From positions 1 to 36,903 of the forward strand of contig JWZX01002771.1 in the NCBI GenBank assembly GCA_001275005.1: a stretch of DNA of 36,903 bases. The letters run 5' to 3'. The translations under genes and the position numbers were made by a program. Positions within the stretch are counted from its first letter, which is position 1. Each line of letters begins with the position of its first letter. Positions 1 to 27,139 of this stretch are shown here, one piece after another. Under the pieces are notes generated by a model, which was given only the letters and a program-made list of their open reading frames with translations, was not told where the DNA came from and searched no databases. The stretch is from Chrysochromulina tobinii. Lineage: Eukaryota.

Positions 1-365
1 CACAAAACCCTACCGGTCCCTACCGTACGTTACTGAAACGACATCGGGCCGTGCGATACTCTACACACACTAGTGCCGCGTTCGGACGATTTCACACACA
101 CTTGAAAGCTGTTCCTCAGGTTCCGCTAACACTGCTCCGCTTGATCTGGTACGCTTGTGTGCGGAGCTCCTTTTTGTTTTCCTTTTTGCAGATCCCCTGT
201 CTCCAATATGCTTCCTCTTGTGCTTCCTCTTGTGCTGTAGACTGCCTCTGGCTGGATCCTTGTATTTTCCTCTGTTGCTCCTTGTGTTCGTGGCGCTCTG
301 CGCCATGCTACTTGTGTTGGTCCCTGTTGCTCCTTGGCTCCTGAACCATCACGTTCCACACTCCC

Positions 366-2521
366 TCAAGCTCTCTCCAAGTGCCAACGGGAGAGGTTTC
401 CCTTGGCCTTCCGGAGCGACTCCTCCATCCGCGCGCGTGCCAGAGAGAATGATCTCTGAGCCTCTCGCTCCACCCGTGCGGCTCGCTCCGCGGCCTCTTT
501 CTCTGACACCTCGGCGCGCTCCAAGGCCGACGACTGCCACGCCATCGGGTCAGCGAGCTCGAGAGCACTCGCAATGTCATATGGGAACGGCGCTTGGGCT
601 TGCCTTACTTGGAGCGGCTCGTCGAGACTCTCGTCGTCAAGATGGGTACGCTCCCACTGGTGCAGCTGCTCCTGCTGCTCCTGCGGATGCTGCTGCTGCT
701 GCTGTAGATTGAGATTGTGATTGAGATTGTGCTGCTGCAGGCCGGCCCAGTAGAGGACGCTCCGCTTCGTCGACTTGCTCGCTAGCAGCATCTGGACCTT
801 AGCGGCGAGCTTCGCCTTCTCCTCGGTCAGCTGCTCGATCTCGGCGTCCTTCTCGCGCCGCAGCTGCCTAATTTGGGCCTTGAACACAGTCTCGAGGTGC
901 ACTAATTTGGATGTCTTGGTATTCGACTCGAGGGAGAGGCCACTCGTCTCGATGACGTATTTCATCCCGAGCTCATCCAGCTTGGTGGTGAGTGCCGCCT
1001 CAATGGCCTCTCTCTCAATGGCCTCTCGCGCCACGCTGACGGCAAGCCGCCGACGCGCCTTGACACCGTCGGTACGTCGCCCCTCTGTCATGTCGGCCAG
1101 CTGGGCGCGCACTCGCTCGCACTCGGCCGACGCCCGTTGGTATGCCGCCTCGCTTCCCTGCGGCTCACGTGTGAATCGATGCATGTGCGCGTCAGCGGTA
1201 CTCAGTGGCACTCAGTGTACACTCAGTGGCACTCAGAAGCGCTCAGTGGCACTCAGCGTCACTCAGTGGCGCTCAGCGGCGCTCAGCGGCACTCAGCGGC
1301 ACACTGCGGCACACTGCGGCACTCTGCGGCACTCACCCGCAGCTCTTCCGCGAGCAAATGCAGATGCAGCGTCAGCAAGGCGGTCTCTTTGTCCCGCTTC
1401 AAGCTGATGTTCAAAATCTCCAAGCGCAGCTTCGCCATCTCGGCCGCGATCTCCGCCTGGCTCGCTTCTTGCACGAATAGCTTGGAGCGGAGCTCAACCA
1501 CTGTCATCTGACATGCGAACTCGAGACGGATGTCAGAGGCAACTATTGGCACTCGGAGGCACTCAGAGGCACCCAGTAGCACTCCGTGGCATTCCACCTG
1601 CAGCTTGCGGATTGAGTCTTCACCCTCTAGAGTACCCGTCTCCGCCCGGCTGAGCTCGCCCAGCGAGATTGAGAGCCACGCGTCCTTTTCCGCCACGAGC
1701 CGCGCGGCAAGGCTGCACAGACTCGCGCTGTGCGTGCTCTGCGCGGCGGCGGCGGCGGCCTCGAGCGCGGCCGCTGACTTCATGAGCCGTTGCACCTCCT
1801 TGCTTGTTCGCAGCATGTGGGCGCGCGCCGCCTCGCGGACGTGACGCTCCGCGTTCGGATCCTTGAATTGCATGCATGCATCCATCAGCCTGGCCTCGGA
1901 CTCGCTCTCGGCCGCTGCGGCGTGTTCCCGCGCGGAAGCGCTGCCCGATACGGCGTCGGCCACCAGACGAGCGTGCGCCGCCACGCCCTGGTCGAGAAGC
2001 TCTCGCAACGCGTCTCCGAGCCAAATGTCGTGCGGTCCGTTCGGAAGGTGCTTAAAGATCCGCTTCTGCTCTTTCGTCCAGGGCTGGCTCGACTGGGACG
2101 CCGCCGTGAGCGCAACTCGCAAGGCTGTATGTCGGCCAGCGAGCACCAGCTCTGCGAGGAGTCGCGCCTCGTCGTGCTTCATCACGCCAGTATGGTTGGG
2201 TGAGCTCTCTCCATTCGGAAATGCGCTCGCGCTCGGACTTCTAGTGAGCGCCTCCAAAGGTGGCGATGGCGCCCGCGGGCCCGATGGAGGCGATGGCGCG
2301 ACGCGGTGACGTCCTGAGGGCGACGACCTGACGGCCGTCAGGAAGGTCGCCGCCATGCTGCGAGTTGCCGGCGGAGATGTGGCTCGAGCTTGGGCCTCGG
2401 CTGCTTGCACACGGGTGGGGAATTTGGTGCACACGGAGCACTCGCGCTGCTTGTGCTTCCAGACCCCGCAGCTCGGACAGCGCTCCTTGGTGTGCGGGTC
2501 GCCAAAAGGAGCCGGCTGCAT
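366..2521 (-). CDS. Hypothetical coiled-coil protein with an N-terminal CxxC...CxxC (Zn-ribbon-like) motif; probably 3 exons (2521-1598, 1507-1337, 1157-366)
   Basis: ORFs 1283..2587(-) and 366..1211(-) join in phase 0 through a GT-AG intron at 1336..1158 (LAEELR|GSEAAY). The first ATG is at 2521 (MQPAPFGDPHTKERCPSCG...ECSVC). The rest is E/A/R/K-rich heptads and a poly-Q patch. The true start may lie further upstream. Confidence 0.6.
1158..1336 (-). other. Intron filled with about 14 copies of a 10-nt repeat (CTGAGTGCCR on the sense strand)
   Basis: Donor GTGAGT at 1336, branch-like GCTGAC, acceptor CCGCAG ending at 1158. Removing it restores the frame. Confidence 0.8.
1508..1597 (-). other. 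Probable 90-nt, stop-free, in-frame intron with degenerate CTGAGTGCCT repeats
   Basis: CAG|GTGGAA donor, CTCTGAC branch-like site, TGTCAG acceptor. It carries the same repeat unit as neighbouring introns and interrupts a coiled coil (RKLQ|MTVVEL). Confidence 0.55.
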
Positions 2522-3142
2522 CAAGGGCGCGGGCTCCTCAGGGAGGGACTCCCACAGGGGTGAGTCCACAGTAACAGAGAGGTTCAAAAATGAGGATTTC
2601 TAGAAGTTGATTTAAAATGGATCTAATTTAGTAATTATGGATCTATTATAATAGTATATGGATCACCTATTATAGTCCTTGTATAGTCGTGACTACTAAA
2701 CAACGCGACTCCAGGGAGAGCGCTGGATGGCGAAACACGATACTCCTTGACGATGCGTATCCTGATTAATCCCAACGGGTATGTACAATTCTACACTATC
2801 AGTACACGTGGCAGATTGTGTGCATCTCGGCACCTCTCTCCTCCGCACCTCGTGGGGGAGATTCGAAGCGCATGGTGCGCGCGCATGATTGATGTCGAGC
2901 TCTCCGAAGCGAGAGCTAAGTGGTCCCGCCGCTCCGCCCACCCTCCGCTACATGTATGTATGCCTGGCCTAGGCGGTAGGCGCCTACATGTAGCTTTAGC
3001 AGGGACCGGGTTTTACCGCGCTCATCAGGCTGCTTCTGTATACATGTAACTTTGATGAGCCGCAATTCAAGTTTCAACACACGACAAGGTTTTCTGCGAC
3101 ATATTCACAGCTTTTCGAGTGAACAAAAATCGGCGAATTCAC

Positions 3143-4859
3143 ATGCAGTCAGCCTGTGCGCGAGCGAGGGGCGATTGGCGCTCGTCGCTCGGTTGCGATG
3201 CGGTTTCACACAATTTTGGTGCACACTTTCGCCCTGCACGCGAGAACGACTCGCTCTGTCTGGCCAACCTCGTCGGCCATTGGTGGTTTGGAAGCCAAAG
3301 GCACGCGCGCCCAGGGTCGCCGATGAGCTCCAAGGTCGACATGATCAACGCGCTGGGGCAGGCCGAAGTGGCACGCAAGAAGGCGCAGCGGTCCGCCTAC
3401 GTGCCCGATCTCTTTCTGCTCGAGCGGCTCAACTTCTTCACTCAGATCCCGAAGCAGTGCCCGCAGAGCCAAGCTTGCTTTGGCTCCTTCCTCGCTCGGC
3501 AGCTCGACAGCGGTGTGAGCTCGCTCGGAGCGAAGCTCCCGAAGCTCGAGGAGTACTGGCTCAAGGCGGCGGCGGTCTTGGAGCTCGAGAAGGGCTTGAC
3601 GGCCGCGCCGCTCTACTTCACTCGCATCCTGCGGGACGTGCTCCCGCTGCTCGGGCCCGACCTCCGAGAAGCGTACCAAGCGTACCAAAGGTACGCGGCG
3701 CGGGCCGACCCAAGCTCGGCGGCGGCTGCGCTGCCTCCGCTGCTGAGCGGCGCCGTGCTGGGCAGCTCGGACGGCGGCACGCCTGCGGGCGGCGACTCGC
3801 GATCAGCTGGTGGCACTGGCTTGCTGCGCCGGCACTGCGTGGTGCACTATCGCGTGGGCGACATGCTCTCGTTGCACGTGAACGGCGGCATGATCATCAA
3901 CCCAGCCGCCGTGGCAGCCGCAGCGGCAAGCTTCGCCCCGGCGCCCACGAGCGTCGAGATCCTCGATGGCGGCGTGGGCTGGGGCGTCGATGGCGCTGTC
4001 AACTCCGATGATGACCCGTCCTCTGTCATCTCGCGCTCGCTTGGGGTGCGACTGATGGCATCTGATTGCATCCCTCATCTCCGTCCTCCGTCATCTCGCG
4101 CTCGCTTGGGGTGCGACTGATGGCATCTGATTGCATCCCTCATCTCCGTCCTCTGTCATCTCGCGCTCGCTTGGGGTGCGACTGATGGCATCTGATGGCA
4201 TCTGATTGCATCCCTCATCTCGCGCTCGGGATGCTCTTCAATCTGAGTGCCTCTGAGTACGACTGATGGCATCTGATTGCATCCCTCCTCAGGTGCTCTT
4301 CAATCTGAGCCGCGCCCTGCAGGCGGCCCTGCCGAGCTCCCGAATCCTACCCTCGACGCTGCGCGCGGCAGATGGCGACTTCTTCGCGCTGACAGAGGCT
4401 GACTATGTCGTGGTGGCTGGGGGCTCGTTTGGGCTCCTTGGGGCCACGGCCGGCAAGCCCGGGCAGCAAGTGCGCTCGCCTGCATGTGATCATCACCTGG
4501 ACGTCGCCGGCTCGCGTCGCGCGCCCAGCGCGAAACCACTTCGCAAGGGCTGGCTCGAGTACCCTTACGATCTCGTCCGGACGCGCGCGGCTCACGAGCC
4601 ACTGCTCGAGCGTGCGCCGCAGCCGGTGTGGCGGCTGGGCAGTGCGCCGGACGATGCTCAGGACGACGCCGAGCGCCATACCGGGCGCGACGGCGCTCGG
4701 CCCCCCTCGCTGCAGTACGTCCTCGATGGCCGCGGAGATGACCTCGGAGATTCGCCGTGGGACGAGAAGCGCACTTTGCTTCCACACGGCGTCGAGCCCT
4801 GGCTGGAGACGTGGCAAGCGTGGGAGCGGTGGCACAAGATCAGGACAGGGGACACCTGA
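3143..4859 (+). CDS. Glycosyltransferase, GT11/NodZ-like (alpha-fucosyltransferase-like); exons 3143-4045 and 4293-4859
   Basis: HCVVHYRVGD resembles the HxRxGD GDP-fucose-binding motif. DFFALTEADYVVVAGGSFG resembles the C-terminal GT11 motif. ORFs 3119..4120 and 4266..4859 join in phase 0 (SRSLG|VLFNLS). Start codon uncertain. Confidence 0.6.
4016..4292 (+). repeat. Three tandem 65-bp copies of exon end plus intron start; intron at 4046-4292
   Basis: The unit CCGTCCTCTGTCATCTCGCGCTCGCTTGGGGTGCGACTGATGGCATCTGATTGCATCCCTCATCT starts at 4016, 4081 and 4146. The intron ends TGATTGCATCCCTCCTCAG at 4292. Confidence 0.9.
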
Positions 4860-4908
4860 TACCTTTAATAGATCGGGGGCCCAGGCCGTGCGAGTGTGTC
4901 GTGTCAAA

Positions 4909-4998
4909 ACATTGGGCCCCTCTCACCCACTATGAGCGCTACCCTCTCGCCGGTAGCGCCGATGGCGCCCATCGCGAGTTCCACTGAGTGCGACTGAT
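4909..4998 (+). repeat. Inverted copy (about 90 bp) of 6777-6864, the P2X exon1/intron1 junction
   Basis: 4909-4998 matches the reverse complement of 6777-6864 with about 2 substitutions and a small indel. Both translate to THYERYPLAGSADG. Confidence 0.92.
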
Positions 4999-5044
4999 AC
5001 GTCCCTCTCGCGTGGAGATGCTCGCGTCTCGCTTCGAATGTCGC

Positions 5045-7816
5045 CTATCCTGGTGGAGGTCCTGCGAGCCCAGGCGGTGGCGCTGACAGCTCTTCATTCT
5101 TGGCAGCAGAAGTAGCCACATTTTGGGCTGGGGCTGGGGCCGGCGCCGGCGCGGCTGTCGCGACCGCCTGCGCGACCGGCGCGGCCGGCGTGGCAGGCGC
5201 GGCCACCGTATGCTGCGCCGCGGCCAAAAGCGACGCCTCCTTCCACCCGCCTCCCGCCTCCTTGTGATACTCCTTCCACCCGAGCTTCCGCGCATCGTCG
5301 AGGCGATTCTGGGCAATGTAGTGCTTGATCCACGCGGTGCGTCGCTCCACATCCTTTGGATCCAATACCGCGGCCGTCCCCTTGACGAAATCGGGCAACG
5401 TGATCGCCTTGGGCTCCTCGCCGGCCGGTAGCCAGCCGAGCTTGCGAGCTTCGCGCATCTGGCCGGCGGCAAGCGAGCTCACGACGAGCTGCGAGGACCA
5501 GCCGAGCTTGATGGCCTCCGGGAGCTCGCCCGAGCTCAGATAATGACGAATCCACGCCGCGCGCCGCTCGTCGTCGGCGGTGAGGGGCGCATGCATGTCG
5601 TCCCCGTTCGGGCTCGTACGCCAGCCGAGCGCCTCTGCTTCGTCATACTGGCCCGTCGCGAGGTAATGCAGCAGCAGGTCGCGACGCGCCCTCTCCTCCG
5701 CGCGCGTCGCATTGGGCGCCGGCGCCGTCGCGGGCGGAAGCGTCGGATTGGCCGGGGTCGGCTGCGAATGTGAAGATGCAGCAGATGAAGCGGCGGGCGC
5801 ACCCGCCGCCGTGTCCTCCGCCGTGCCGAGCGCCGCCGCGCTGTCTCTTTCCGCGGCTTCGGCGCGGCGGCGCTCGGCGAACTTGCGCATCTCGGCCTGC
5901 GCATGGGCAAACGCCTGCTGGCAATACTGGCGCTGCGGGTCGGCAGCCTTACCATCACGATGTGTGCCCTCCGACGCTTGGGCCTTGGCGACAAGCTCGA
6001 GGGCCTTGTAGACGGACTCGAAGTTGCCTCCCTCACGTGCCACCATGAACTCGTCAAAGTTGATGCTCAGCTGCTCTGCCGCCGCGCCGGCCCCTGCCAT
6101 GGCCGCAGCCGTGGCCGCATCCGGCTTCTCCTCCACCTCCACGGGTGCCGTCTGCTTGCCCTTCGCCTTGCGCCTCGTCGTCTCGGACCCCTTCTTGCCC
6201 TTCGCGGCGGCCTTGTCGGCCGCGACGCGCCGATCTTCTGTGGCCGCGCGCATCACCAGGTTCGCCATCGCAAGGGCCTGTTCAAAGCTGACGCCGCCCA
6301 CCCCCGCAAACGCGCGCACCAGGTCGTCCACCTGCAGCAGCCCATCGCCGTCGTCGTCCAGGCTCTGGAACTGCGCGCTCGCCAGGACCGCCTTCATCCC
6401 AATCTCTGCGAACCTGTCCTCTGCGTTCAAGTTCTCGCGCGTCCGGTTGCATGCTCAGCTGATGAGGGACGCAATCAGAGCGCCTCAGAGGCCATCAGAG
6501 CACGCACCTGCGTTGAAGTTCTCGCGCGTCCGGTTGTCGATCATCTCAGCGCGCCCGTTGGGGGCAAACTTGAGCGCCCAAAAGGTGGCGATCTGCTTGG
6601 CGAGCCCGAGCAGCACTAGGCCCTCGATCAGCTTGCCGATGAGCAGGCCCCAATCCCACTGCCAGAGCAGGCCAGACGTGCGGAGTCGGAAGATGACGCC
6701 CTGCCGCCACCGGTGAACCTTGTCGAACTCGCGATAGTCACCTGATTAGGGACGCAATCATTTGCCATCAGTCGCCATCAGTCGCACTCAGTGGCACTCG
6801 CGATGGTCGCCATCGGCGCTACCGGCGAGAGGGTAGCGCTCATAGTGGGTGATGGGCCCAATGTCCCCCCACGTCGACGTGGTCGCCTTCGCGTCGACCC
6901 GTGCGAACACGGTCTGCTCATCGTACCCCGGCCGACCAGTCGTCGGGTCGATGTTCGAGTAGCGCACATCGATCTCGATCGCGAGGCCCGACGAGCGGAA
7001 GCTCGGGTACACATGGGCGCGGCCGGGCCGGTAGTCGGGCGACAGGTTGGTGTTCGCATCATTCAGCCGGAAGCCCTCCTCCGTCGCCAGCTGCACCCAC
7101 TCGCCCACGGTCAACCGGATGGCGCCGCCGCTCCGCACCGTGTGCCTGCCGCCCGTCTCGTTCTGAAAGTGGATGGTCGTGTCGACGGCGCCCGGGGTGC
7201 CGGCGGGCGCCGTGCTGCTGCCACTGCGTCCGGCGAACCGCATCGCGCCTTCAAAGCCGTGCTCGATGGCCATGTCCATCAGCTCCACGCCTACAGGGTA
7301 CACGGTTCGCTTGGAGGAGCAAACGCACTGCATGCCGCCCTCGAGCGTGGCGTCGACCGTGCCGTTGCGCAGCACGCACGCACTCCGCTGGCTCGCATTG
7401 TGTGCGGCGGCGCACGCCCAGCCGACCTCGCGGTACTCGACGAACGCCGTCGTGAAGTGCACCGCGTCACCCCCTTTGGCACTCACCTCGTACGGGCTGA
7501 CAATCTGACACTGCGGATCGTCCATCACAGTGTTCGGGTCGTATGCGTACGAAAACGCCGCCGGGTTGCAATAGGACAGCTCGCTGAGGTCGGCGTAGCC
7601 TGTGTGCTCAGTGTAGCGGCCCGCCTCAGGCCACCCGTTCACCGCACCGACGGGCGCCTCTGAGAAGGCCCACGCATCGGCAGCGTAGAGGTTGTAGGCC
7701 ACGTAGAAGACGACGAGTAGCTGCAGGAAAAGGTGCACGAGGCCCACCTCCCACACCTCGATGGTCACGCGCCGATCCATGACGAAGGTGAACGTCTTAT
7801 TCCAGTCGCGCGCCAT
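5045..7816 (-). CDS. P2X-receptor-like channel with a C-terminal EF-hand pair and repeats; exons 7816-~6823/6811, 6741-6508 and 6420-5045
   Basis: The N-terminus and TM1 (FTFVMDRRVTIEVWEVGLVHLFLQLLVVFYV) resemble P2X. A Cys-containing ectodomain follows with RSSGLAIEIDVRYSN. Exon 2 encodes GVIFRLRTSGLLWQWDWGLLIGKLIEGLVLLGLAKQIATFWALK, matching the P2X pre-TM2/TM2 pattern. The tail has the EF-hand loop DDDGDGLLQVDD and INFDEFM. Confidence 0.8.
6421..6507 (-). other. Intron 2 of the P2X-like gene (87 nt), ending in a copy of the upstream exon end
   Basis: GCAG|GTGCGT donor, then CTGATGGCCT/CTGATTGCGTCCCTCATCAG, then a 29-nt duplicate CAACCGGACGCGCGAGAACTT(G/C)AACGCAG that supplies the in-frame acceptor. 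Confidence 0.75.
6742..6822 (-). other. Intron 1 of the P2X-like gene (donor is GT at 6822 or GC at 6810)
   Basis: Contains CTGAGTGCGA/CTGATGGCGA repeats and ends TGATTGCGTCCCTAATCAG at 6742. Either donor keeps the frame into GDYREFDK. Confidence 0.7.
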
Positions 7817-8028
7817 GAAGATGGACGGGGTGGCAGTCGCGGCAGTTCACGATTTTCTCGCCGAAGTGCGGGGGGCGGGTACCGGGTAGGAAGGCGGCGG
7901 ATAACAGCCCGCCCGCGCAGGCGCAGCGCACGCGGGGCTCTTCGGTGGCCAGCAGCCACGTCACATGTTTCGTGCAAAACGCCGTTTCGAACGCGATTCG
8001 CGGACTCCGGGTGATTGCGTTCGGGGCC

Positions 8029-8823
8029 ATGCAAAGGCTGTACGACGGCGACGCCGACGGCGCCCTGGCGGTCGCATCAGGTTCCTCATCGGCCGAGGCG
8101 GGTGACGTCCTGGCTCCGCTTCCCCATGACGGCGGATACGAACTCAAGAGGTTCACGTTCGAGGAAGGCCCACTCGGCATGAAATTCGGCGGCACGTTGG
8201 AGCACACAACAGCTGGTGTCGAGGTTGCAATCGTGACGGTGTCGGAGTTGTTGCGCGACTCCCAGGCAGCGAAGCTCGGCGTCCCCGTGGGCTCGATCCT
8301 GAAGCTCATTGGCCAGACGAACATCACCCAGGTGAAGACGATGGCGGAGGTCCTCGATGTGCTCAGTGCGGCGCCACGGCCCGTTGAAATCGCGATGACC
8401 GTGCCGCGGCCCAAGAGGGATGACGAGTATGACGATGATGACATTGGGGCGATCATGATGGAGAAGCAGGTCACGCCTGGCACGGATATGGCGATCATGA
8501 TGGCCGAGCAGATGAAGGCCGAGTTTGCGGCGGACTATGCGGCGGCGGCAGCTGCGGAAGCGGCGGTCCAGGCAGAGCAGAAGAACGCGGAGGCCATGGG
8601 CAACTTCGTGATTGTCACCGAGAAGGGCACTGGGTTCTTCCACTTCGAGTTCTTTGCCGACGAGCTCAACGCACGCCGTGCGGCGGCGAAGCTGTGGTGC
8701 TGCTGGGTGCTCTTTTGCAGGCAAGGGGGAGCGCTCAACGAGGTGACGTCCGGCGGCCTTGGGTTCGCCTGTATGTCGATTCGGAATCATGTGTTGATGC
8801 AAATCAGCGGGGTTGGTAGCTGA
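8029..8823 (+). CDS. PDZ-like domain protein with an uncharacterised C-terminal domain
   Basis: FTFEEGPLGMKF...SQAAKLGVPVGSILKLIGQTNI...AEVLDVLSAAPRPVEIAM is a PDZ pattern. ATG at 8029, divergent from the P2X gene. Confidence 0.7.
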   Translation: MQRLYDGDADGALAVASGSSSAEAGDVLAPLPHDGGYELKRFTFEEGPLGMKFGGTLEHTTAGVEVAIVTVSELLRDSQAAKLGVPVGSILKLIGQTNITQVKTMAEVLDVLSAAPRPVEIAMTVPRPKRDDEYDDDDIGAIMMEKQVTPGTDMAIMMAEQMKAEFAADYAAAAAAEAAVQAEQKNAEAMGNFVIVTEKGTGFFHFEFFADELNARRAAAKLWCCWVLFCRQGGALNEVTSGGLGFACMSIRNHVLMQISGVGS

Positions 8824-8922
8824 AGTTTTATGTTGAGCCGGCGCTCATCTTGGCGCGCCACGTGTTCGGACGCAAACGAAGTCTTCTGCACCTTTCGTGG
8901 CGGTGCGACAATTGTGTCTGGC

Positions 8923-11773
<2,851 letters not shown>

Positions 11774-13029: not shown

Positions 13030-14914
13030 TCAGATACGCAGCTTAAACCCAGCCTTTCCTTGCATTGCCTTCCGAATCAAGGCCTCCCCTTCCTCGCCAA
13101 TGCAAGGGTCGCACTGGAGGTTGCACTCGGTCAATGCGCCGTTAGCAGCGATTGCCGGAGCGAGAGCTGCTGCACCCGCTGGGCCGAGCCTGTTGCCGCT
13201 AAGACTGCACGGCACAAAGGGGGCCATGTATATTCAGTCGTGCTGCAAAGCCAGGTCAGAAAGCAGGTCAGGGGGGTTCGAAATTTTGGCAAACTTACTC
13301 AATTTTGGTCAGCGCGCCTGTGACAACGGCCTGTGACAGGTCCGACGCCAGCAGGATCGCATCAGGCGGCTTGAGTCCCTTGAAGGAGAAGTTAGCGGTG
13401 GTCTGGTCGCGCTGGATGCCGCAGAGCGAGATGCCCTTCTGCTTGGCGACTTCAGCGAGCATCTTGGCGGACTTCATATCAAGCTGATTGCCCAGGAGGT
13501 TGGTCACCGTCAGCGCGCCATTAACGCGCAAAGCGTCGGCAATCGCTGTGATGCCCTCTGCAGTATAAGTTCCTTCGCCACATTCATTGACGCCGCACAG
13601 CTGGTTGCCTGAGAGGTCCAGCTGCAATACAAATCAAAGCAAGGCAAGGGTTAGAGAACAGAAAAGAGAAAAGGCTAATCTAGGGGGTCAGAAAGCGAGC
13701 ACCTGTGTCAGCGCGCCATTGATGCGCAGAGCGTTGGCAATCGCTGTGATGCCCTCTGCAGTGTAGGTGCCGCCGAAGTCGTACACTCCGCAGAGTGCGT
13801 TGTTGGAGAGGTCCAGGCTCGTCAGCCCGCCCATGACAGGCACGAGGTACGCAAGAAGCATGCCACCTTCGACGCCGATATTTCTCTCTTGCAGGTCGAG
13901 CTCAGAGACGGAGTCGTCGCGCATCATCTGCACCGGAATGCCGCAAATCTCGCCAGAGCCGGCGCAGGCGACAGCTGCAAGCAGGAGCTCGAGCGGCGGC
14001 TCGCCCTCTCCCTCGATGCAGCTGAGGAGAGCGGTTTCGGCAGGGCCTCCAAGGAACGGACTCTCGTCCTCGTACTTGTACTCGTCCTCTTCATCCCTCT
14101 CGTCCAGATCCACCTCGCGGACCGCGGCCACATTCACCTCGAAGCCCTCCCAGCGCAGTCGGGCCAGGCTGGGCAGCATCCTCCCCGCCGCCGCCGCCTC
14201 CCATGGCCGGCCCGCGTCGACGAGGACCTTGATGTTGAGATCGGTGATCTCAGCCAGCTGAGTCGGCGCGGGCTGCCCCTCGCAGCGGCTGAGGCGGGAG
14301 CAGAGCACGCGCCGCGCGAGCGCCGACCACGATCGGTTCACGCCCTTGAGCTCGGCCAGCGTGACCACGTCGACCATGCCCAGCCCCACCTCTTTGGCAT
14401 CGTCTGTGACTGCCATCCACAACGTAAGCTGCGGCTGCAGCGCGGGTGCTCCCCCCGCAGAGCCCACCATGGCTTCTGACAGCTGTCCCTCCGGCGAGAA
14501 CGCCGGCTCGGCGAGTGCCGCCACACGTTCCTCCGCACTGCCAAAGCCATCCGTTGCGCCGAGCAGCTCTGTCAGCTCATCGGCACGTTTGCCGTTGAGG
14601 CGCGAGGCGAGGGCGCGCTGCGCGTGATTGAGCGCCCCGGGGGCGTCGAGGAAGCTGGCGCATTCGACGAGCCTGAAGAGCTCCGAATTCGAGCACTGCT
14701 CGAGTCTCGCCGGCATGGAGTCGGCCTCGCACATCTCCCGGAGCACTGCCAGCTCTGCCGCCGCAATCGTCGGCACCGGGTAGACGCCATCTTCGGTTGG
14801 AGCGTCGTCCATCATGTCTTTGAGCGTGCCTGCTCGCTGGGCCACCCGGCGCGTCCACTCGACAGCCTCGCCCTCGCGCGCCCGCAAGCGCACGCGCTCC
14901 TCGCCGTAGGACAT
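13030..14914 (-). CDS. Skp1-like + F-box-like + RI-type LRR (NLRC3-like) protein; exons 14914-13703, 13621-13299 and 13204-13030
   Basis: The N-terminus follows Skp1 (VRLRAREGEAVEW...GTLKDMMDD...PVPTI...LFRLVECASFLDAPGAL...LASRLNGKRADELTELLG). An F-box-like stretch follows (VTDDAKEVGLGMVDVVTLAELKGVNRSWSALAR), then LRRs (LDLQERNIG, LDLSNNAL, LDLSGNQL, DLSGNRLG). GT-AG introns at 13702-13622 (phase 0) and 13298-13205 (phase 2) join the ORFs in frame. Confidence 0.8.
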
Positions 14915-15313
14915 TACCGTAAAATTTTGTCCGCTTCACGTCAACAGTTCTGCCGTGTGCAGGCAGTGCGCCTGCGCGCCGGCATGCGCCCGAGGTGCGC
15001 CCTGAAGCGTGAAGACGTGGGTGTGAATTCACAGACGAAAAACCGAGAGAACTGAGCATCAGAGACCGACATCCTACGGCTGCATTCGGGGCCCGGGTGC
15101 ATGAGCACGACGCATGAGAGAGACACATCTCTTGCACAATCTGTAGAAGCCACTGGTGTGCAGGCCATGTCACGACTTGCGCGTGCAGATCGAACCGCGC
15201 AACCGGCGGATGTCAGTATAGCGGTCCGGGACCGTGGGACCGTGACCTTTTCGGTCGCCGGTGTTCTAGGTCGAGTTGGGCGGCGCCTTTGGCGGCCACT
15301 CCCATCGACCCTC

Positions 15314-16259: not shown

Positions 16260-19200
16260 TCAATCCAGGTCGGTCGCAGCGGGCCGCGATTTGAGGGAAG
16301 TCCTCACGGGCTGCGGCTTTTCGTCGTCGTAGGCAAGCATTTTCACGGCCTGCGGCCCCACCAAAGGCTTCGGCTTGGTCACGGCCTCTCCCACAGCTGG
16401 AGCTGCGGCAGGCTGCGCGGTGCCTGGCGCCTTGGGCGACGCGCCGGCGACGGCGGCGGCGAGCCCGGGCTCCGCAGCGGCGGCGAGCTCGCGAAGGGGC
16501 GTCGAGACGGTTGCGGCAGCGGCGACGAGCACGGCGATGATGCCCTGCCAGCCGCACGCTGCCTGCGCCGCACCGACGTCGCCGCGCACGACGGCGGCCA
16601 GGGTGAGGGCGAGCACCGTGCGACCGTCGGCCTCGGTGCAGCCGAGGAGCGCCGTGCCGAGCGCCGCCGCGCCGCCCGCCTCGAGGGCCGCGCCTCGCGC
16701 CTCGGGCCAACTCTCAAGCATCGCGCCCAACGCGGCCGCGAGGGGCACCGCCGCGTTCGGCTCGCTCGCGCTCATGTGTACGATGAGCAGGGGCACCGCG
16801 CCGGCCTGCGCAAGCGCACCTGCGAGCTTGGGATTGGTGGCGAGCTGCCGAGTCGCGTGAAGCCCTTCAGCTGCGTACTCGGTACCGACGTACTTTCGCG
16901 ACGCAGCACAGCCGAGGAGGAGGACGATCGAGTATGCCGTGCCGAGTGCAAAGGTGCCGTCGGCCACCAGGGCCTCGTCGCTCGTGCACGCGCCAAGCGT
17001 GTGCGCCACGAAGCGCACTGCCGTTGGGTCCGCGCCGAGCGCCTCACGCGCCGCGCCCTGTCGAGCGAGCAGCGCGGCGGTACCCTGCGCGCTCGCTTTG
17101 TGTAGCGCTTCACTGCGAGGATTCGAGCCCAGAAACGCTTCGAGCATCCCCTTCTGCGCGGCGGCGGCCTTGGCGGCGACGTGCACGTTGAGGACCGCGA
17201 GGACGGCAGGCCAGCCGCATGCGGCGTAGATGGCGTCCCAATCGCCACGGACGACCGCAGCGAGGGTGAGCGCGAGGACGAGCCGGCCGTCGGCCTCGGT
17301 GCAGCCGAGGAGCGCCGTGCCGAGCGCCGCCGCGCCGCCCGCCTCGAGGGCCGCGCCTCGCGCCTCGGGCCGACTCTCAAGCATCGCGCCCAACGCGGCC
17401 GCGAGGGGCACCGCCGCGTTCGGCTCACTCGAGCCGATGAGAAACACGACGGACGTGATGGCGCCCGGCACCTCGACGAACGCGCCCGCGAGAGCGCGAT
17501 CGCCGCTCAGCTTGAGGAGAGTGGCCAAGGATTGCTCGACGACGTGGTGGTCGTTGTGCGAGAGGAGCGCATGCACAGCTCGGGGCGTGCCCGCCGCGAG
17601 CAGCGCGGGCGCCACCGTCTCGGCGAACCCGACCAGGTTGCTCAAAGCGGTGAGCGCCATGGTGAGCACCGCAGCGTCCTGTTCGAAGAGGAGCCGACCG
17701 AGCGTCGCGAGCACGCCCGGCACGGCGCTCAGCGCCGTCGGGTCGACGTACGAAAAGTTGGCCAGGGCCGAGAGCGCCATCGCGCGCGTGCGCGCGTCCA
17801 GCTGCGTCGAGGCGCTCAGCTGCTGAGCGAGCGGCGGGAGCGCGCCCCATGACGCGAGCTGCAGACGAAAGGTATCATCCGCCGCAAAGTGCGAGAGCGC
17901 GTGCGTCGCGTGGCGCGCTCCCTCGCCCCCCTCGCTAATGGCCATCGAAAGGGCGGGCGGCAGGTTGAGCAGCACGAGCTCGCGCCGGCACAGTCGGTCC
18001 TCGGACACCTTGGCCAGCAGACCGAGCGCCGCCGTGCGCGCCTCGGTCTGGGCGCCGCCGTGGGCTCGTCCCTTGGTGGCCATGATCACGCCCGCGAGAG
18101 CGCTCTGAAAGGGCAGCGAGCGCAACGGCTCGAGGCTGAGCGCGCCGAGCGACGAGAGGTTCGCCAGGGTCGTGAGCGCTGCGGCTTTGGCCGTCTCTGT
18201 GGGCGGCGCCACGATGATGTTCACGTACGTTGCGAGGGCTCTCGGGTACTCGGCGATGGCGACCGCCGAGGTGGGCGCGGCGGAGAGGGTGGCGAGCGCC
18301 TGCATCGCCTGTAGGTGCGTCGCCTCGGCGGCCGAGGTGGACACGAGCGTCTCGCAGAGCAGTGTAATCCCGCCGCTGTTCTCAAGCACGGTCAGCTGTG
18401 CCTTGTCAGTTGGGTCGAGCAGGGCTAAGATGGTGGCCGCCGCCTTGTGCACCTCCTCCTGACGGCACGCCAGCAACGCCACCAGGGCAGGCAGCGCCGA
18501 CGCCTGGCGCACCGCATGACGAACCGCCTCGACACCGGAGTCGCCGATGGCACCAAAGGCGGCCAGCACCGAGAGAGCCTGCCCGGCGTCCTTGGACGCC
18601 TCTGCGGCGGCGCGTGAGTCCACGGCGTCGGCGCTGCCCGTCCTGCCCGTCCAGTTGGCGATCATGGCCGCTCGCATCATCTCCCTGATGACAGGGACGG
18701 CGGCGCCCGCGGCCAGCAGCGCAGGCGCGCCGTTATGGGCACATATCCTCGAGATGAGGTGCAGTGCACACGAGCGCGTCTGGGCCACATTTGGCAACTC
18801 GCGCTCCGGGAGCGAGATCAGCGCGAGCAGCGGACGTACGCCGTCGGCCGCAACGAGCTGCTGGCAGGCTGTCTCGGTCGTGATGACCGTGATGAGCAGC
18901 AGCGTAACCTCCTGCTGCACGGTGGGGTCTGACGAGCTGAGCAGCGCGCCTGCGATGGACGCGCAGCGGTGGGCGGCGAGCCGTGAGCTAGGTGGGCGTG
19001 TGCAACGCGAAGGGAGAGAGGGAGAGAGAGAGAGACAGACAGAGACAGAGGGGGAGAGGGGGAGAGGGGGAGAGAGAGAGAGAGAGAAAGAGAGGCGCTC
19101 GGGGCGGCGCGCTCGGGGCAGGGCAGGCAGGCTGGAGTCCGCGGGAACTCGCACCGAGGTACAGGATGCCTCCGCCACCGGCTAGGGCGTCCTTGACTCG

Positions 19201-25902: not shown

Positions 25903-27139
25903 CTACAGTGGCTTGCGGCCGATGACCACGTACATTGGGGTGAAAGTACCCATCTCGCCGCCGGCGACGAGCCCAAGCTGTGCCTGTCGGAGCATCTCGC
26001 GAACCTTGCCCGAACCCCTGGGCGCAATGCCCACGAATTCCATGAAGTTGAGGACGATGTTCATCATGAAGGTGCCCCAATAGGTGAACTGCAGACGGAA
26101 GAGGCCCTCGCGTGACGCGAGGTTGTAGCTCGCGGTGAGGATCTTGTACCACGGCTCGCCGCCAGGGTTGGGGTCCAGCGCAGCGTCGCGGCTCTCAATG
26201 ATCTCGAATCCCGCGCGCTTCAGAGCCGCGTCGCAGCTCGTCGTCAGGGTGAGGCCGGGCAAGCCGTCGCCTTCCTCAATCTTCTTCTTGGACCAGACGT
26301 GGCGCTCGTTGAGAGGGTCGTGCTTCTCCGTCAGGCACCACTCGTACGAAGCAAAGTAACCGCCCGGTTTGAGCACGCGGAAGACCTCTGAGTACACATC
26401 CACCCGGTCGGGCGAGTGGCAGCAAGCCTCGATCGAGTAGCAGCTGTTGAAGGTGGCCTCAGCGAATGGCAGCTTGTGGAAGTCGGCTTGCACGAGCCGA
26501 CACCTATCGTCCAGGTGCGCCTCCTGGCACAGGCGGTTGCCGCGGTCAACCTGGTACTGGTTGAGCGTCACGCCGGTGACCTTTGCGCTGGTGAAGCGGC
26601 CGATGTTGCGCAGCGGGCCGCCGATGCCGCAGCCGCAGTCGAGCACGTGATCGGACGGCTTGATGCCCAAGCGCATCGCGAGGTAGTACTCGTGGCGCGC
26701 AATCGACATTCCGAAGTCCTCGCCCTGCAGTCGCTCGGCAAAGTGGAAACTCTGGCCCCAGCCCCACTCGTAGAAGTCTGTTGCGAGGTTGTAGTATGAG
26801 TTGACCAGGTCGACATATGCCGCGTTGCGTCCCTCAACACTCGTCTTCTTGTCATCGTGCAGCGCATTGTACTTGTCAATGTCGTGGCTGCCCTTGCCCG
26901 AGACCTGTCCGCTCTTGCCGCTCGTCCAACTGTCTAAGATCTGCGAGACGCGCCCGGAGAACGTCTGACGCACCGCCCTGCAGAGAGATTTGGTGGAGGC
27001 GGTGTCGGCGAGCGTGTCAGAGACAATGCGGGTCCAACGGTGCGTGATGCTGCACGTCGTCGAGCGCGCGCGCGCGCGGGGCGGGGCAGAAGGCTCTGCA
27101 CACATAGATGCCGAGTGTCGAGATCTTCGGGTTACGCAT
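25903..27139 (-). CDS. SMT1: Sterol 24-C-methyltransferase (ERG6/SMT1 family); 5' exon uncertain
   Basis: VNSYYNLATDFYEWGWGQSFHFA (SMT region I), VLDCGCGIGGP, YSIEACCH, VLKPGGYFASYEW and FTPMYVVIGRKP. A possible first exon starts at ATG 27139 and splices to the CTCTGCAG acceptor near 26978. Confidence 0.92.

Follow-up and report, generated by a model that had tools for sequence, protein, structure and literature searches.

Repeat-filled introns that carry copies of their own exon edges in the haptophyte Chrysochromulina tobinii, and their possible origin in break repair

Introduction

Introners, which are described as the sole mechanism able to explain bursts of intron gain (available passages of PMC12130899), include haptophyte families in Emiliania, Prymnesium, Phaeocystis, and Haptolina (Gozashti et al. 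2022; part of PMC9860276). The same source states that the main Introner survey dropped families rich in short repeats. Neointrons of Daphnia pulex have been attributed to the repair of staggered double-strand breaks; internal repeats are present in 61% of these new introns, and parallel gains at one site are frequent (Li et al. 2014; sections available from PMC4202315).

Here, we describe a family of repeat-filled introns in a stretch of 36,903 nucleotides from Chrysochromulina tobinii (contig JWZX01002771.1), which we refer to as the window. Eight introns in four genes on both strands had been picked out in an original prediction as containing related short repeats, for which synthesis on a short template was proposed. 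The haptophyte Introners went unmentioned there.

Results

Gene structures and splicing

All eight segments begin with GT and end with AG on the strands predicted, and their excision yields uninterrupted frames in four genes. Two additional introns of the SEC23 gene, 10424–10507 and 10649–10749, were overlooked by the original prediction; with these included, the GT...AG count is 10/10 (Table 1). Analysis of RNA contigs revealed that the five SEC23 introns, including 9811, 10083, and 11134, are spliced exactly. Position 11130 is joined directly to 11258 across intron 5, and the numbers of unaligned letters between contig pieces (328 in X15 and 516 in X17) are exactly those predicted when all SEC23 introns are spliced. 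Contigs of X16 end at the predicted exon edges of 6421–6507 (at 6508) and 6742–6822 (at 6739 and 6821/6823), with unaligned letters beyond. RNA coverage over 1158–1597 and 4046–4292 is missing or thin, which says nothing either way about splicing. The predicted intron 1508–1597 is the least certain of the set because it is 90 nt in length and contains no stop when retained. The repeat-filled segments are U2-type spliceosomal introns, a statement that is exact at the RNA level for the five SEC23 introns, indirect for two others, and predicted for the remainder.

Table 1 Introns and associated features in the window
Feature	Position	Strand	Description
Predicted intron, phase 0	1158..1336	-	~14 CTGAG-type 10-nt units; first unit forms the GT donor, in register
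Predicted intron, phase 0	1508..1597	-	~4–5 degenerate CTGAG-type units; no exon copy; frame open if retained
Predicted intron, phase 0	4046..4292	+	65-nt tandem, junction copy, then 50-nt core with shared acceptor
Inverted ectopic copy	4909..4998	+	94% over 90 nt to exon end and intron start at 6777–6864
Intron, phase 1	6421..6507	-	49-nt GT...shared end, then upstream-exon-end copy supplying AG
Intron, phase 1	6742..6822	-	Repeat core ending in shared acceptor
SEC23 gene	8923..11773	+	759 aa, six exons, five phase-0 introns after residues 296, 352, 414, 461, 589
SEC23 intron 1	9811..9914	+	~8 units, then perfect 23-nt exon copy
SEC23 intron 2	10083..10237	+	Downstream-exon copy, 13-nt units, second exon copy, shared acceptor 10219–10237
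SEC23 intron 3	10424..10507	+	Second family, CTCACCACGGCGCC motif, 33-nt internal duplication; spliced length fits RNA
SEC23 intron 4	10649..10749	+	Second family; spliced length fits RNA
SEC23 intron 5	11134..11260	+	~9–10 CTGAT-type units; direct RNA join

A sense-oriented repeat family with a shared 3' end

The motif CTGAKKGC matches the window 37 times compared with 8.8 +/- 3.2 times in 100 shuffled sequences, none of which reaches 37. Inside the eight introns (1070 nt) there are 31 sense and 0 antisense matches, counts that are biased in that these introns were chosen for their repeats; the remaining 35,833 nt of the window contain 6. Because copies within one array are not independent, we also scored strand per intron, and 8/8 introns carry the motif on the sense strand (binomial p 0.008). 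The claim that the repeats always lie in sense is borne out by these counts, and the repeats are distributed equally neither between the strands nor between introns and other DNA. TRF identified 10-nt arrays of ~2–14 copies in 7/8 segments and, at 10107–10153, 3.6 copies of a 13-nt unit, in agreement with the proposed 10-nt units, the 13-nt variant in 10083–10237, and a copy number of about 3–14. The 10-nt register runs unbroken up to the acceptor. By analogy with the other introns of the window, the CTGA unit used as branch point is predicted to lie ~27 nt before the AG.

A 19-nt end, said to be shared by four introns at or near the acceptor, was found four times in the window and 0 times in 100 shuffles. 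It forms the acceptor of introns 4046, 6742, and 10083, is found inside intron 6421, 38 nt before the acceptor, and is absent from 4/8 introns. Between two unrelated genes, a 50-nt 3' core is identical at 40/50 positions. The unit types follow an order from 5' to 3' in which CTGAG-type units precede CTGAT-type units and often the ~20-nt end with its acceptor; the 5' ends of the repeat introns are unrelated to one another. Global pairwise identity is 0.28–0.56 (of the longer intron), and terminal inverted repeats (TIRs) are absent from 8/8 introns (local scores of 3–6 when the first 25 nt are compared with the reverse-complemented last 25), so the original view of these introns as free of TIRs and unlike near-identical Introners holds. 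Folding of seven introns revealed no structure beyond that of shuffled sequences (z -1.0 to +3.7). SEC23 introns 10424–10507 and 10649–10749 belong to a second sequence family that contains the CTCACCACGGCGCC motif.

The strict strand bias, the register maintained up to the acceptor, and the variable copy number are features expected of a telomerase-like enzyme that deposits units and acceptor at breaks by reiterative synthesis on one short RNA template, as originally suggested. However, units resemble one another more within introns (7.7/10 nt) than between introns (6.3/10 nt) and form an ordered series of types in which the 13-nt variant is included, no Rfam family was matched in the window, and the units are altered in a close relative. 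A fixed telomerase-like template is unlikely because the units differ between introns and have been turned over in that relative; the order of types and the 40/50 core argue in the same direction, and we consider this mechanism highly improbable. Templated break repair, the other half of the original idea, fits well.

A classic DNA-transposon Introner, with a fixed short target-site duplication (TSD) and TIRs or none, later degraded as its repeats expanded, would have a precedent in Chrysochromulina sp., whose Introners are reported with 4-bp TSDs and no TIRs (part of PMC9860276). The exact boundary repeats here range from 2 to 23 nt (up to 32 nt when mismatches are tolerated), so there is no constant TSD of 3–9 bp; together with the lack of TIRs and of end-to-end similarity, this leaves such an origin with very little likelihood. 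Replitrons were set aside as mobilizers, given that no terminal direct repeats or hairpin are seen here (compare the available text of PMC10288648).

Introns contain copies of their own exon edges

Near-perfect copies of an intron's own exon edges, 23–48 nt in length, are present in 4/10 introns, and decayed copies are present in more. The junction-anchored copies in introns 6421, 9811, 10083, and 10649 exceed all 150 null sites (28–54 versus null maxima of 18–20). At p<0.05, exon-edge copies were detected in 6/10 introns compared with 0/4 repeat-free introns of the window, which were themselves predicted by eye; this contrast is not significant (Fisher p 0.085). Boundary repeats of 5–6 nt were excluded as evidence because 26% of conserved Drosophila introns bear them (part of PMC3296678). 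The exon-edge copies, which the original prediction overlooked, are the most informative feature of these introns.

The copies occur on either side of the intron and vary in length, unlike the products of a fixed transposase cut. In intron 6421, positions 6421–6449 match 6508–6536 at 28/29 nt. The last 23 nt of SEC23 intron 1 (9892–9914) duplicate the upstream exon end at 9788–9810 perfectly and supply its AG. SEC23 intron 2 opens with a 29-nt copy of the start of the downstream exon, which supplies its GT, and contains a second exon copy of 48 nt at 10167–10214; a tandem of 71-nt units spans 10151–10285. The first 10 nt of SEC23 intron 4 equal the start of the downstream exon, with a match that reaches ~24 nt. 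All five SEC23 introns are preceded by an exonic AG, and four are followed by GT. Intron 4046 is overlain by a 65-nt tandem at 4016–4202 (2.9 copies) whose unit joins exon end to intron start; it also includes a copy of the uninterrupted exon–exon junction at 4215–4247 and additional internal exon copies of 30 and 16 nt. Weaker matches, whose p values were drawn from 20 tests, link the last 39 nt of 1158–1336 to the last 40 nt of its upstream exon (a decayed copy, p 0.013) and the end of SEC23 intron 5 to its upstream exon end (a weak, decayed match, p 0.046). A short internal match between intron 6742 and the start of its downstream exon is borderline. Two convergent genes have their stops on either side of the inverted copy at 4909–4998, which shows that local copying has also taken place in noncoding DNA.

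Exon copies can also postdate an intron, through a duplication that spans a splice site or through repair templated by cDNA or by an allele that lacks the intron, and the 65-nt and 71-nt tandems are most simply explained as later events of that kind.

Age of the SEC23 introns and turnover of their arrays

Each of the five SEC23 intron sites is contiguous and intron-free in 6/6 haptophyte DNA loci that cover it. The sites are likewise uninterrupted in long-contig ORFs from three clusters (P0005/P0148; P0007/P0152–P0154; P0125/P0127/P0129/P0133) of the window's own clade, a rough placement based on a quick tree. Because these introns are absent from every covering haptophyte DNA locus, most of the five are likely to be recent gains. 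Sites 352 and 589 may be old and possibly occupied in other lineages: in one locus (P0009), the match to SEC23 breaks off precisely at site 352, and 13/120 matches to the last SEC23 exon, distant eukaryotes among them, begin within residues 580–595. For SEC23, these intron positions may be lineage-specific with respect to the covering haptophyte loci. The original prediction named ancient positions common to distant lineages as evidence against itself, and this applies in part: two of the five sites may be occupied elsewhere. No intron at a position corresponding to sites 296, 414, or 461 was found in any locus examined. The closest relatives (L007 and L008; 90–91%) are transcript-like and cannot date the gains. 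No presence/absence polymorphism was detected against one second assembly, which apparently derives from the same organism and is identical across the ten introns.

A close relative (P0188) contains a homologous intron at the site of SEC23 intron 5 in which the array is longer and its units are altered; the arrays have turned over after their origin. This turnover, and the similarity of units within introns, would also be expected if no intron had been created, that is, if old introns had been filled later by a slippage minisatellite, the 3' core had spread by ectopic gene conversion, and the exon copies had been added by duplication. Such a reading gains from the possible sharing of sites 352 and 589, the restriction of the shared end to half of the introns, and the presence of unrelated 11–13-nt repeats in other haptophytes' own SEC23 introns (L010 and P0006); E. 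huxleyi is among the species with 25–50% repetitive intron content (available portion of bioRxiv 10.1101/283549). On the other hand, it demands many parallel losses to account for the absence of all five introns from the covering orthologous DNA loci and the three same-clade clusters, it must contend with three sites that have no counterpart, and the downstream-exon copy that opens intron 10083 would not result from simple duplication of an existing intron. We judge secondary filling to be rather unlikely; if true, the locus would be a clean though unremarkable example of minisatellites turning over within introns.

Repeats beyond the window

In DNA contigs, the repeats and the shared end are present at many other loci. 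In DNA run X12, the summed contig depth over the 9811 array is 8137 compared with ~40–50 in unique bins, and 40 contigs carry the end at 10219 behind different upstream sequence, which indicates that donor arrays are abundant. In RNA runs, repeat depth is 111–385 against a background of ~10. A template RNA was considered on this account and rejected: the ratio to background is lower than in DNA, and the libraries may contain DNA.

Of four pattern scans of viral contigs, three found nothing and one gave a single match (L093), in unrelated sequence. The 19-nt end had 12 single matches in prokaryote genomes compared with ~17 expected by chance. Among 93 loci (698 kb), tandem motif pairs were confined to the second assembly (L018) and L093. 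When the peptide encoded by reading through the repeats was used as a protein query, it recovered only itself among 86 candidates.

Another candidate is a non-autonomous Introner in which a short core RNA with a conserved 3' end is mobilized in trans by a LINE-type reverse transcriptase (RT), which would leave variable 5' lengths and target duplications. The conserved 3' end, variable 5' extent, and polarity of the 50-nt core match this expectation, as do direct repeats of variable length, and non-LTR retrotransposons account for ~5% of classified Introners (part of PMC12130899). Against this model, the shared end is missing from half of the introns and internal in 6421, some introns have their exon copy at the 5' end and others at the 3' end, and repeats are no more enriched over background in RNA than in DNA. 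Moreover, RT or transposase Pfam domains were found in none of the 18 window ORFs or exons scanned. Target copies of 23–48 nt also exceed the usual length for LINE-type retro-mobilization. In our assessment, retro-mobilization is unlikely.

Discussion

We tentatively favor a model, short of an even chance, in which most of these introns arose recently when the repair of staggered breaks duplicated exon sequence and copied in repeats from a different intron of this family. A broken exon end would anneal through a few bases to one of many genomic arrays; CTGA, GAGT, or CTCCC-like matches, noted by eye, are present at several junctions. Synthesis, presumed to proceed from array into gene, would then copy part of the ordered core (CTGAG-type and CTGAT-type units, often with the 20-nt end and acceptor). 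Rejoining of the end to its own locus out of register would generate a direct repeat of ~10–48 nt, and the splice site missing from the insert would be supplied by the exon copy. In coding sequence, only sense-oriented and cleanly spliced inserts would survive, such that selection may underlie the strand bias. Slippage would later alter unit number and spread unit variants within each array. The break-repair model requires neither a transposase nor a reverse transcriptase.

It is tempting to speculate that the 10-nt core, with its branch-point-like units and acceptor, serves as a preferred ectopic template in a transposase-free, self-propagating system that has seeded hundreds of introns and left long, variable exon duplications, although we regard this extension as doubtful. 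A family of this type would be invisible to Introner searches because it has only one shared end and is of low complexity. If correct, the repair of breaks by copying from a common repeat core would constitute a second, transposase-free route to intron bursts, one excluded by design from the main Introner survey (as described in part of PMC9860276), and would tie the abundance of repeats in haptophyte introns to the origin of introns. The alga is grown in mixed culture, and sequencing runs of both DNA and RNA are publicly available. With those runs and five such introns in one conserved gene, the claim is directly testable.

Several features of the family have counterparts in described systems. 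The introns resemble Daphnia neointrons in that the edge of the adjacent exon recurs as a direct repeat at the intron's opposite end; the Daphnia repeats are 4–12 bp compared with 23–48 nt here, and the available sections describe no genome-wide common repeat family or acceptor core among the inserts (PMC4202315). In tandem genomic duplication, a duplicated exon segment gives GT or AG at an AG|GT site, as in 10083, 10649, 9811, and 6421, whereas here the copies are separated by foreign repeat DNA common to other loci (Yenerall et al. 2011; part of PMC3296678).

Tandem units composed of an exon edge plus a splice signal are known from the "mirage" minisatellites of amphioxus, which resemble the 65-nt and 71-nt units. 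That model covers the secondary tandems only, not the 10-nt family or its absence in orthologues. The introns of Emiliania huxleyi, also a haptophyte, reportedly contain 10–11-bp tandem repeats, which Read et al. (2013) are said to have described as repeat accumulation; their length of about one helical turn is similar, a likeness of description rather than of unit sequence. Those repeats are not known to have been connected with the birth of introns, with duplicated exon sequence, or with a common acceptor.

The family is not described in the intron and repeat passages of two haptophyte papers (PMC2784329 and PMC4580454) or of PMC12480563, PMC8775090, PMC4028052, or PMC10290126. The combination of repeat introns with long exon copies was not found in the literature searched; published Introner sequences may bear on novelty. 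The occurrence of similar introns in genes unrelated to one another, at positions that may be specific to the lineage, is shared with Introners (parts of PMC9860276; bioRxiv 10.1101/2020.10.14.339549, Roy et al.; PMC12130899), which also occur in haptophytes and carry one splice site while taking the other from the duplicated target. Introner families are required to be similar at both ends and have TSDs of 3–9 bp that are fixed per class (PMC9860276, in part); here, 3/8 introns share the acceptor end, 5' ends are unrelated, and the duplications are long and variable. Dominated by 10–13-nt tandem units, these introns fail the low-complexity filter applied to Introners. Haptophyte Introners, haptophyte repeat-rich introns, and break-repair introns of Daphnia are already known; what appears new, within the literature searched, is the presence of exon-edge copies in introns built on a shared repeat core.

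Repeat introns in four neighbouring genes

All eight segments predicted to be introns begin with GT and end with AG on the predicted strands, and their removal gives four genes open reading frames. By TRF, every segment holds a tandem array, with a 10-nt period in seven and a 13-nt period in one, in agreement with the original prediction. The motif CTGAKKGC matches 37 times in the window versus 8.8 ± 3.2 times in shuffled sequences; the eight introns hold 31 sense and 0 antisense matches, and the other 35.8 kb holds 6. Because the introns were picked for their repeats, the fair strand count is made per intron, and all eight are in sense orientation (p = 0.008). Such repeats are missing from four control introns, at 13.6, 15.9, 19.0, and 27.0 kb, whose prediction was made by eye. 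The repeat-intron feature is real.

Features of the window and of related sequences (L, related DNA locus; P, related protein)
Feature	Position	Strand	Remarks
Host gene	2521-366	minus	open frame after intron removal; no Pfam match at curated cut-off; repeat introns 1158-1336, 1508-1597
Host gene	3323-4859	plus	open frame after intron removal; no Pfam match at curated cut-off; repeat intron 4046-4292
Host gene	7816-5045	minus	open frame after intron removal; no Pfam match at curated cut-off; repeat introns 6421-6507, 6742-6822
SEC23	8923-11773	plus	open frame after intron removal; repeat introns 9811-9914, 10083-10237, 11134-11260
Second-family introns (SEC23)	10424-10507, 10649-10749	plus	
Duplication in armadillo-repeat gene	16560-16770, 17220-17430		~200-nt near-identical internal duplication
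Sterol C24-methyltransferase-like gene	25903-26978		Pfam Sterol_MT_C; neighbours: mitochondrial carrier and rRNA methylase-like gene
SEC23 protein clusters continuous through all five sites			P0005/P0148; P0007/P0152-P0154; P0125/P0127/P0129/P0133
Haptophyte SEC23 intron	L010:1687-1961		GC-AG; 12-nt unit begins at donor
Haptophyte SEC23 intron	after residue 406		P0006/P0186
Haptophyte SEC23 intron	after residue 325		P0009

The 19-nt end shared by some repeat introns occurs four times in the window and never in 100 shuffles. It had been placed at or near the acceptor in four introns; it forms the acceptor in 4046, 6742, and 10083, but the copy in 6421 lies 38 nt inside. Units run from CTGAG-type to CTGAT-type to the 20-nt end. 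Aligned without gaps, introns 4046 and 6742 agree at 40 of their final 50 positions, and whole-intron identity among the repeat introns is 0.28-0.56. Terminal inverted repeats are absent, as originally noted.

The eight repeat introns lie within positions 1-11300, and none of the four introns predicted in the remaining 25 kb (11800-36903) is of this kind. This clustering (8/10 versus 0/4, Fisher p = 0.015, post hoc) may reflect local copying or a chromatin effect. A second assembly (L018) is identical to the first 14 kb of the window but for 2 bases, shows 23 differences in 13985-14915, and is unrelated beyond 14915; a multi-copy gene family, a structural variant, or an assembly difference are the alternatives.

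Two further SEC23 introns, 10424 and 10649, were overlooked originally and have in common a 14-nt motif distinct from the CTGA repeats. CTCACCACGGCGCC is common to both, about 30 nt from the acceptor.

Splicing and genomic spread

The SEC23 stretch is present in 20 of 23 listed runs, six of these RNA; for splicing and depth, every contig of one DNA run and three of the RNA runs was used. A direct junction between 11130 and 11258 in RNA contigs corresponds to excision of 11134-11260. The letters between aligned RNA pieces, 328 in run X15 and 516 in X17, match exactly the prediction with all SEC23 introns removed. In RNA run X16, contigs break off at 6508, 6739, and 6821. Within a 2-nt ambiguity these positions coincide with the exon edges as predicted, which indirectly supports splicing of 6421 and 6742. 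Among the RNA alignments listed, none attests splicing of the predicted introns 1158, 1508, and 4046, and the reading frame stays open if 1508 is retained.

In the DNA run (X12), summed contig depth reaches 8137 in the bin of the 9811 array, 340-750 in bins holding 1158, 4046, 10083, and 11134, and 1001 in the second-family bin, versus about 40-50 in unique bins. At 10219, where the shared end starts, 40 contigs depart from the window on the upstream side, and 12 plus 17 contigs carry different sequence beyond 10239-10240. Because summed depth, which is not a copy number, is high and flanks differ among contigs, both intron families are dispersed across the genome.

Age of the SEC23 introns

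The closest named SEC23 is that of Calcidiscus leptoporus (70%). Related stretches were taken as the best 80 of 290. A quick tree places the window SEC23 among haptophyte sequences, adjoining loci L007 and L008, with a Phaeocystis cordata protein in a neighbouring cluster. The five introns of the window SEC23 follow residues 296, 352, 414, 461, and 589. The proposal that such introns are newly created held up against haptophyte DNA, where every site is uninterrupted in all six loci that cover it (seven compared: L002, L010, and L021 clearly genomic, L015 probably, L011, L012, and L016 possibly transcripts), but less well elsewhere, where 352 and 589 are possibly shared. Three clusters of long-contig proteins within the window's clade are continuous through all five sites; some members read into other introns, which suggests that these proteins were called without splicing, although this is not proven for each. 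Introns in SEC23 of distant loci sit elsewhere, at about 143, 278, 327, 408, and 439.

P0009 diverges from SEC23 exactly at site 352. Thirteen of 120 last-exon matches start at residues 580-595, including an Ixodes model, a Cymbomonas model, and haptophyte-like P0190; the query begins there too, and some may be ordinary start codons. Still, site 589 may be old. Both 352 and 589 are CAG/GT, and parallel gain at such sites is documented (PMC4202315, PMC3488318). Intron gain is likely at 296, 414, and 461 and uncertain at 352 and 589.

Other haptophytes have SEC23 introns of their own at different sites, several of them filled with tandem repeats that are C-rich or have 11-13-nt units and bear no relation to the CTGA family. 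The intron near residue 143 in a distant alga (L027/L029/L031) holds a 15-nt unit five times.

Array turnover

Protein P0188 is 99% identical to the last SEC23 exon and continues across the homologous intron, where 61 residues show a 10-residue period and the 3' end is unchanged. The array behind this peptide would be longer, with many of the CTGA units turned into CGGA. Arrays therefore alter fast once an intron exists, and branch-point selection does not maintain most CTGA units. Units are also more alike within introns (7.7 of 10 nt) than between them (6.3 of 10; permutation p = 0.0002, units of one array not being independent). This intron specificity, the ordering by type, and the altered P0188 array disfavour the telomerase-like reiterative synthesis originally proposed, and deposition of units from a fixed template is highly improbable.

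Old introns that acquired their repeats later would account for array turnover and for the doubtful sites 352 and 589. This history would, however, require many losses and would hardly yield an intron that opens with downstream exon sequence, and we consider it unlikely.

Exon-edge copies and intron origin

Copies of exon edges within the introns had also been overlooked. Intron 9811 closes with 23 nt identical to the end of its upstream exon, and 6421 closes with a 28/29 copy that reaches about 40 nt with small gaps. The 5' end of 10083 matches the downstream exon at 28/29, a second exon copy, 48 nt long, lies inside it, and 10649 opens with 10 bases identical to the downstream exon. Intron 4046 holds two extra copies of a 30-nt exon end and one of the uninterrupted exon-exon junction. 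A copy placed at the 3' end supplies the AG; one at the 5' end supplies the GT. Copies anchored at the junctions were tested against a null of 150 matched coding sites. Scores exceeded every null in 6421, 9811, 10083, and 10649, and reached p = 0.013 in 1158 and p = 0.046 in 11134; the test gave no signal in 1508, 4046, 6742, and 10424 or in any of the four controls (6/10 versus 0/4, Fisher p = 0.085).

The simplest account, which we favour tentatively at somewhat below an even chance, begins with a staggered break in an exon, the repair of which would copy from another intron of the repeat family. Rejoining of the broken end out of register would generate a long direct repeat, selection would retain sense inserts that splice cleanly, and slippage would remodel the array. 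On this account the exon copy would date from intron birth, though a copy made later may look the same in sequence. Templated break repair, an alternative in the original prediction, covers the exon copies, the shared core of ordered units plus end, and the sense bias. A short, retro-mobilised RNA that inserts the introns would fit the conserved 3' end and duplications of variable length; exon copies on either side and the lack of the shared end in half of the introns make this quite unlikely.

The 90 nt at 4909-4998 repeat, in inverted orientation, an exon end with its adjoining intron start (6777-6864) and lie directly 3' of the gene holding that segment. A long 3' UTR might base-pair with the splice donor of the same transcript, or the copy may itself be a 3' UTR intron of the plus-strand gene.

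Comparison with known systems

Read et al. are said to have described, in 2013, E. huxleyi intron repeats with a 10-11-bp period. The study bioRxiv 10.1101/283549 describes E. huxleyi introns as rich in repeats, and PMC9860276 records Introners, a known class of intron-creating element, from Chrysochromulina, Emiliania, Prymnesium, Phaeocystis, and Haptolina. This family and feature combination was not found in the accessible full-text literature or transposon-intron review PMC11282704, with subscription literature thinly covered; either may nevertheless have been described in print. It is possible, though on the doubtful side, that the introns form a system that propagates introns without a transposase, with a minisatellite core as its seed.

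Break-repair neointrons of Daphnia work similarly, but their exon repeats measure 4-12 bp (PMC4202315). Introners have in common with these introns that one splice site is carried and the other borrowed (PMC9860276 and bioRxiv 10.1101/2020.10.14.339549), and short-repeat families were filtered out of the PMC9860276 survey. Compared with published Introners by description only, the repeat introns fall outside the class as PMC9860276 defines it, and a classic DNA Introner is a very improbable source. As originally anticipated, they differ from known Introners: similarity does not span the introns from end to end, and the duplications are long and variable.
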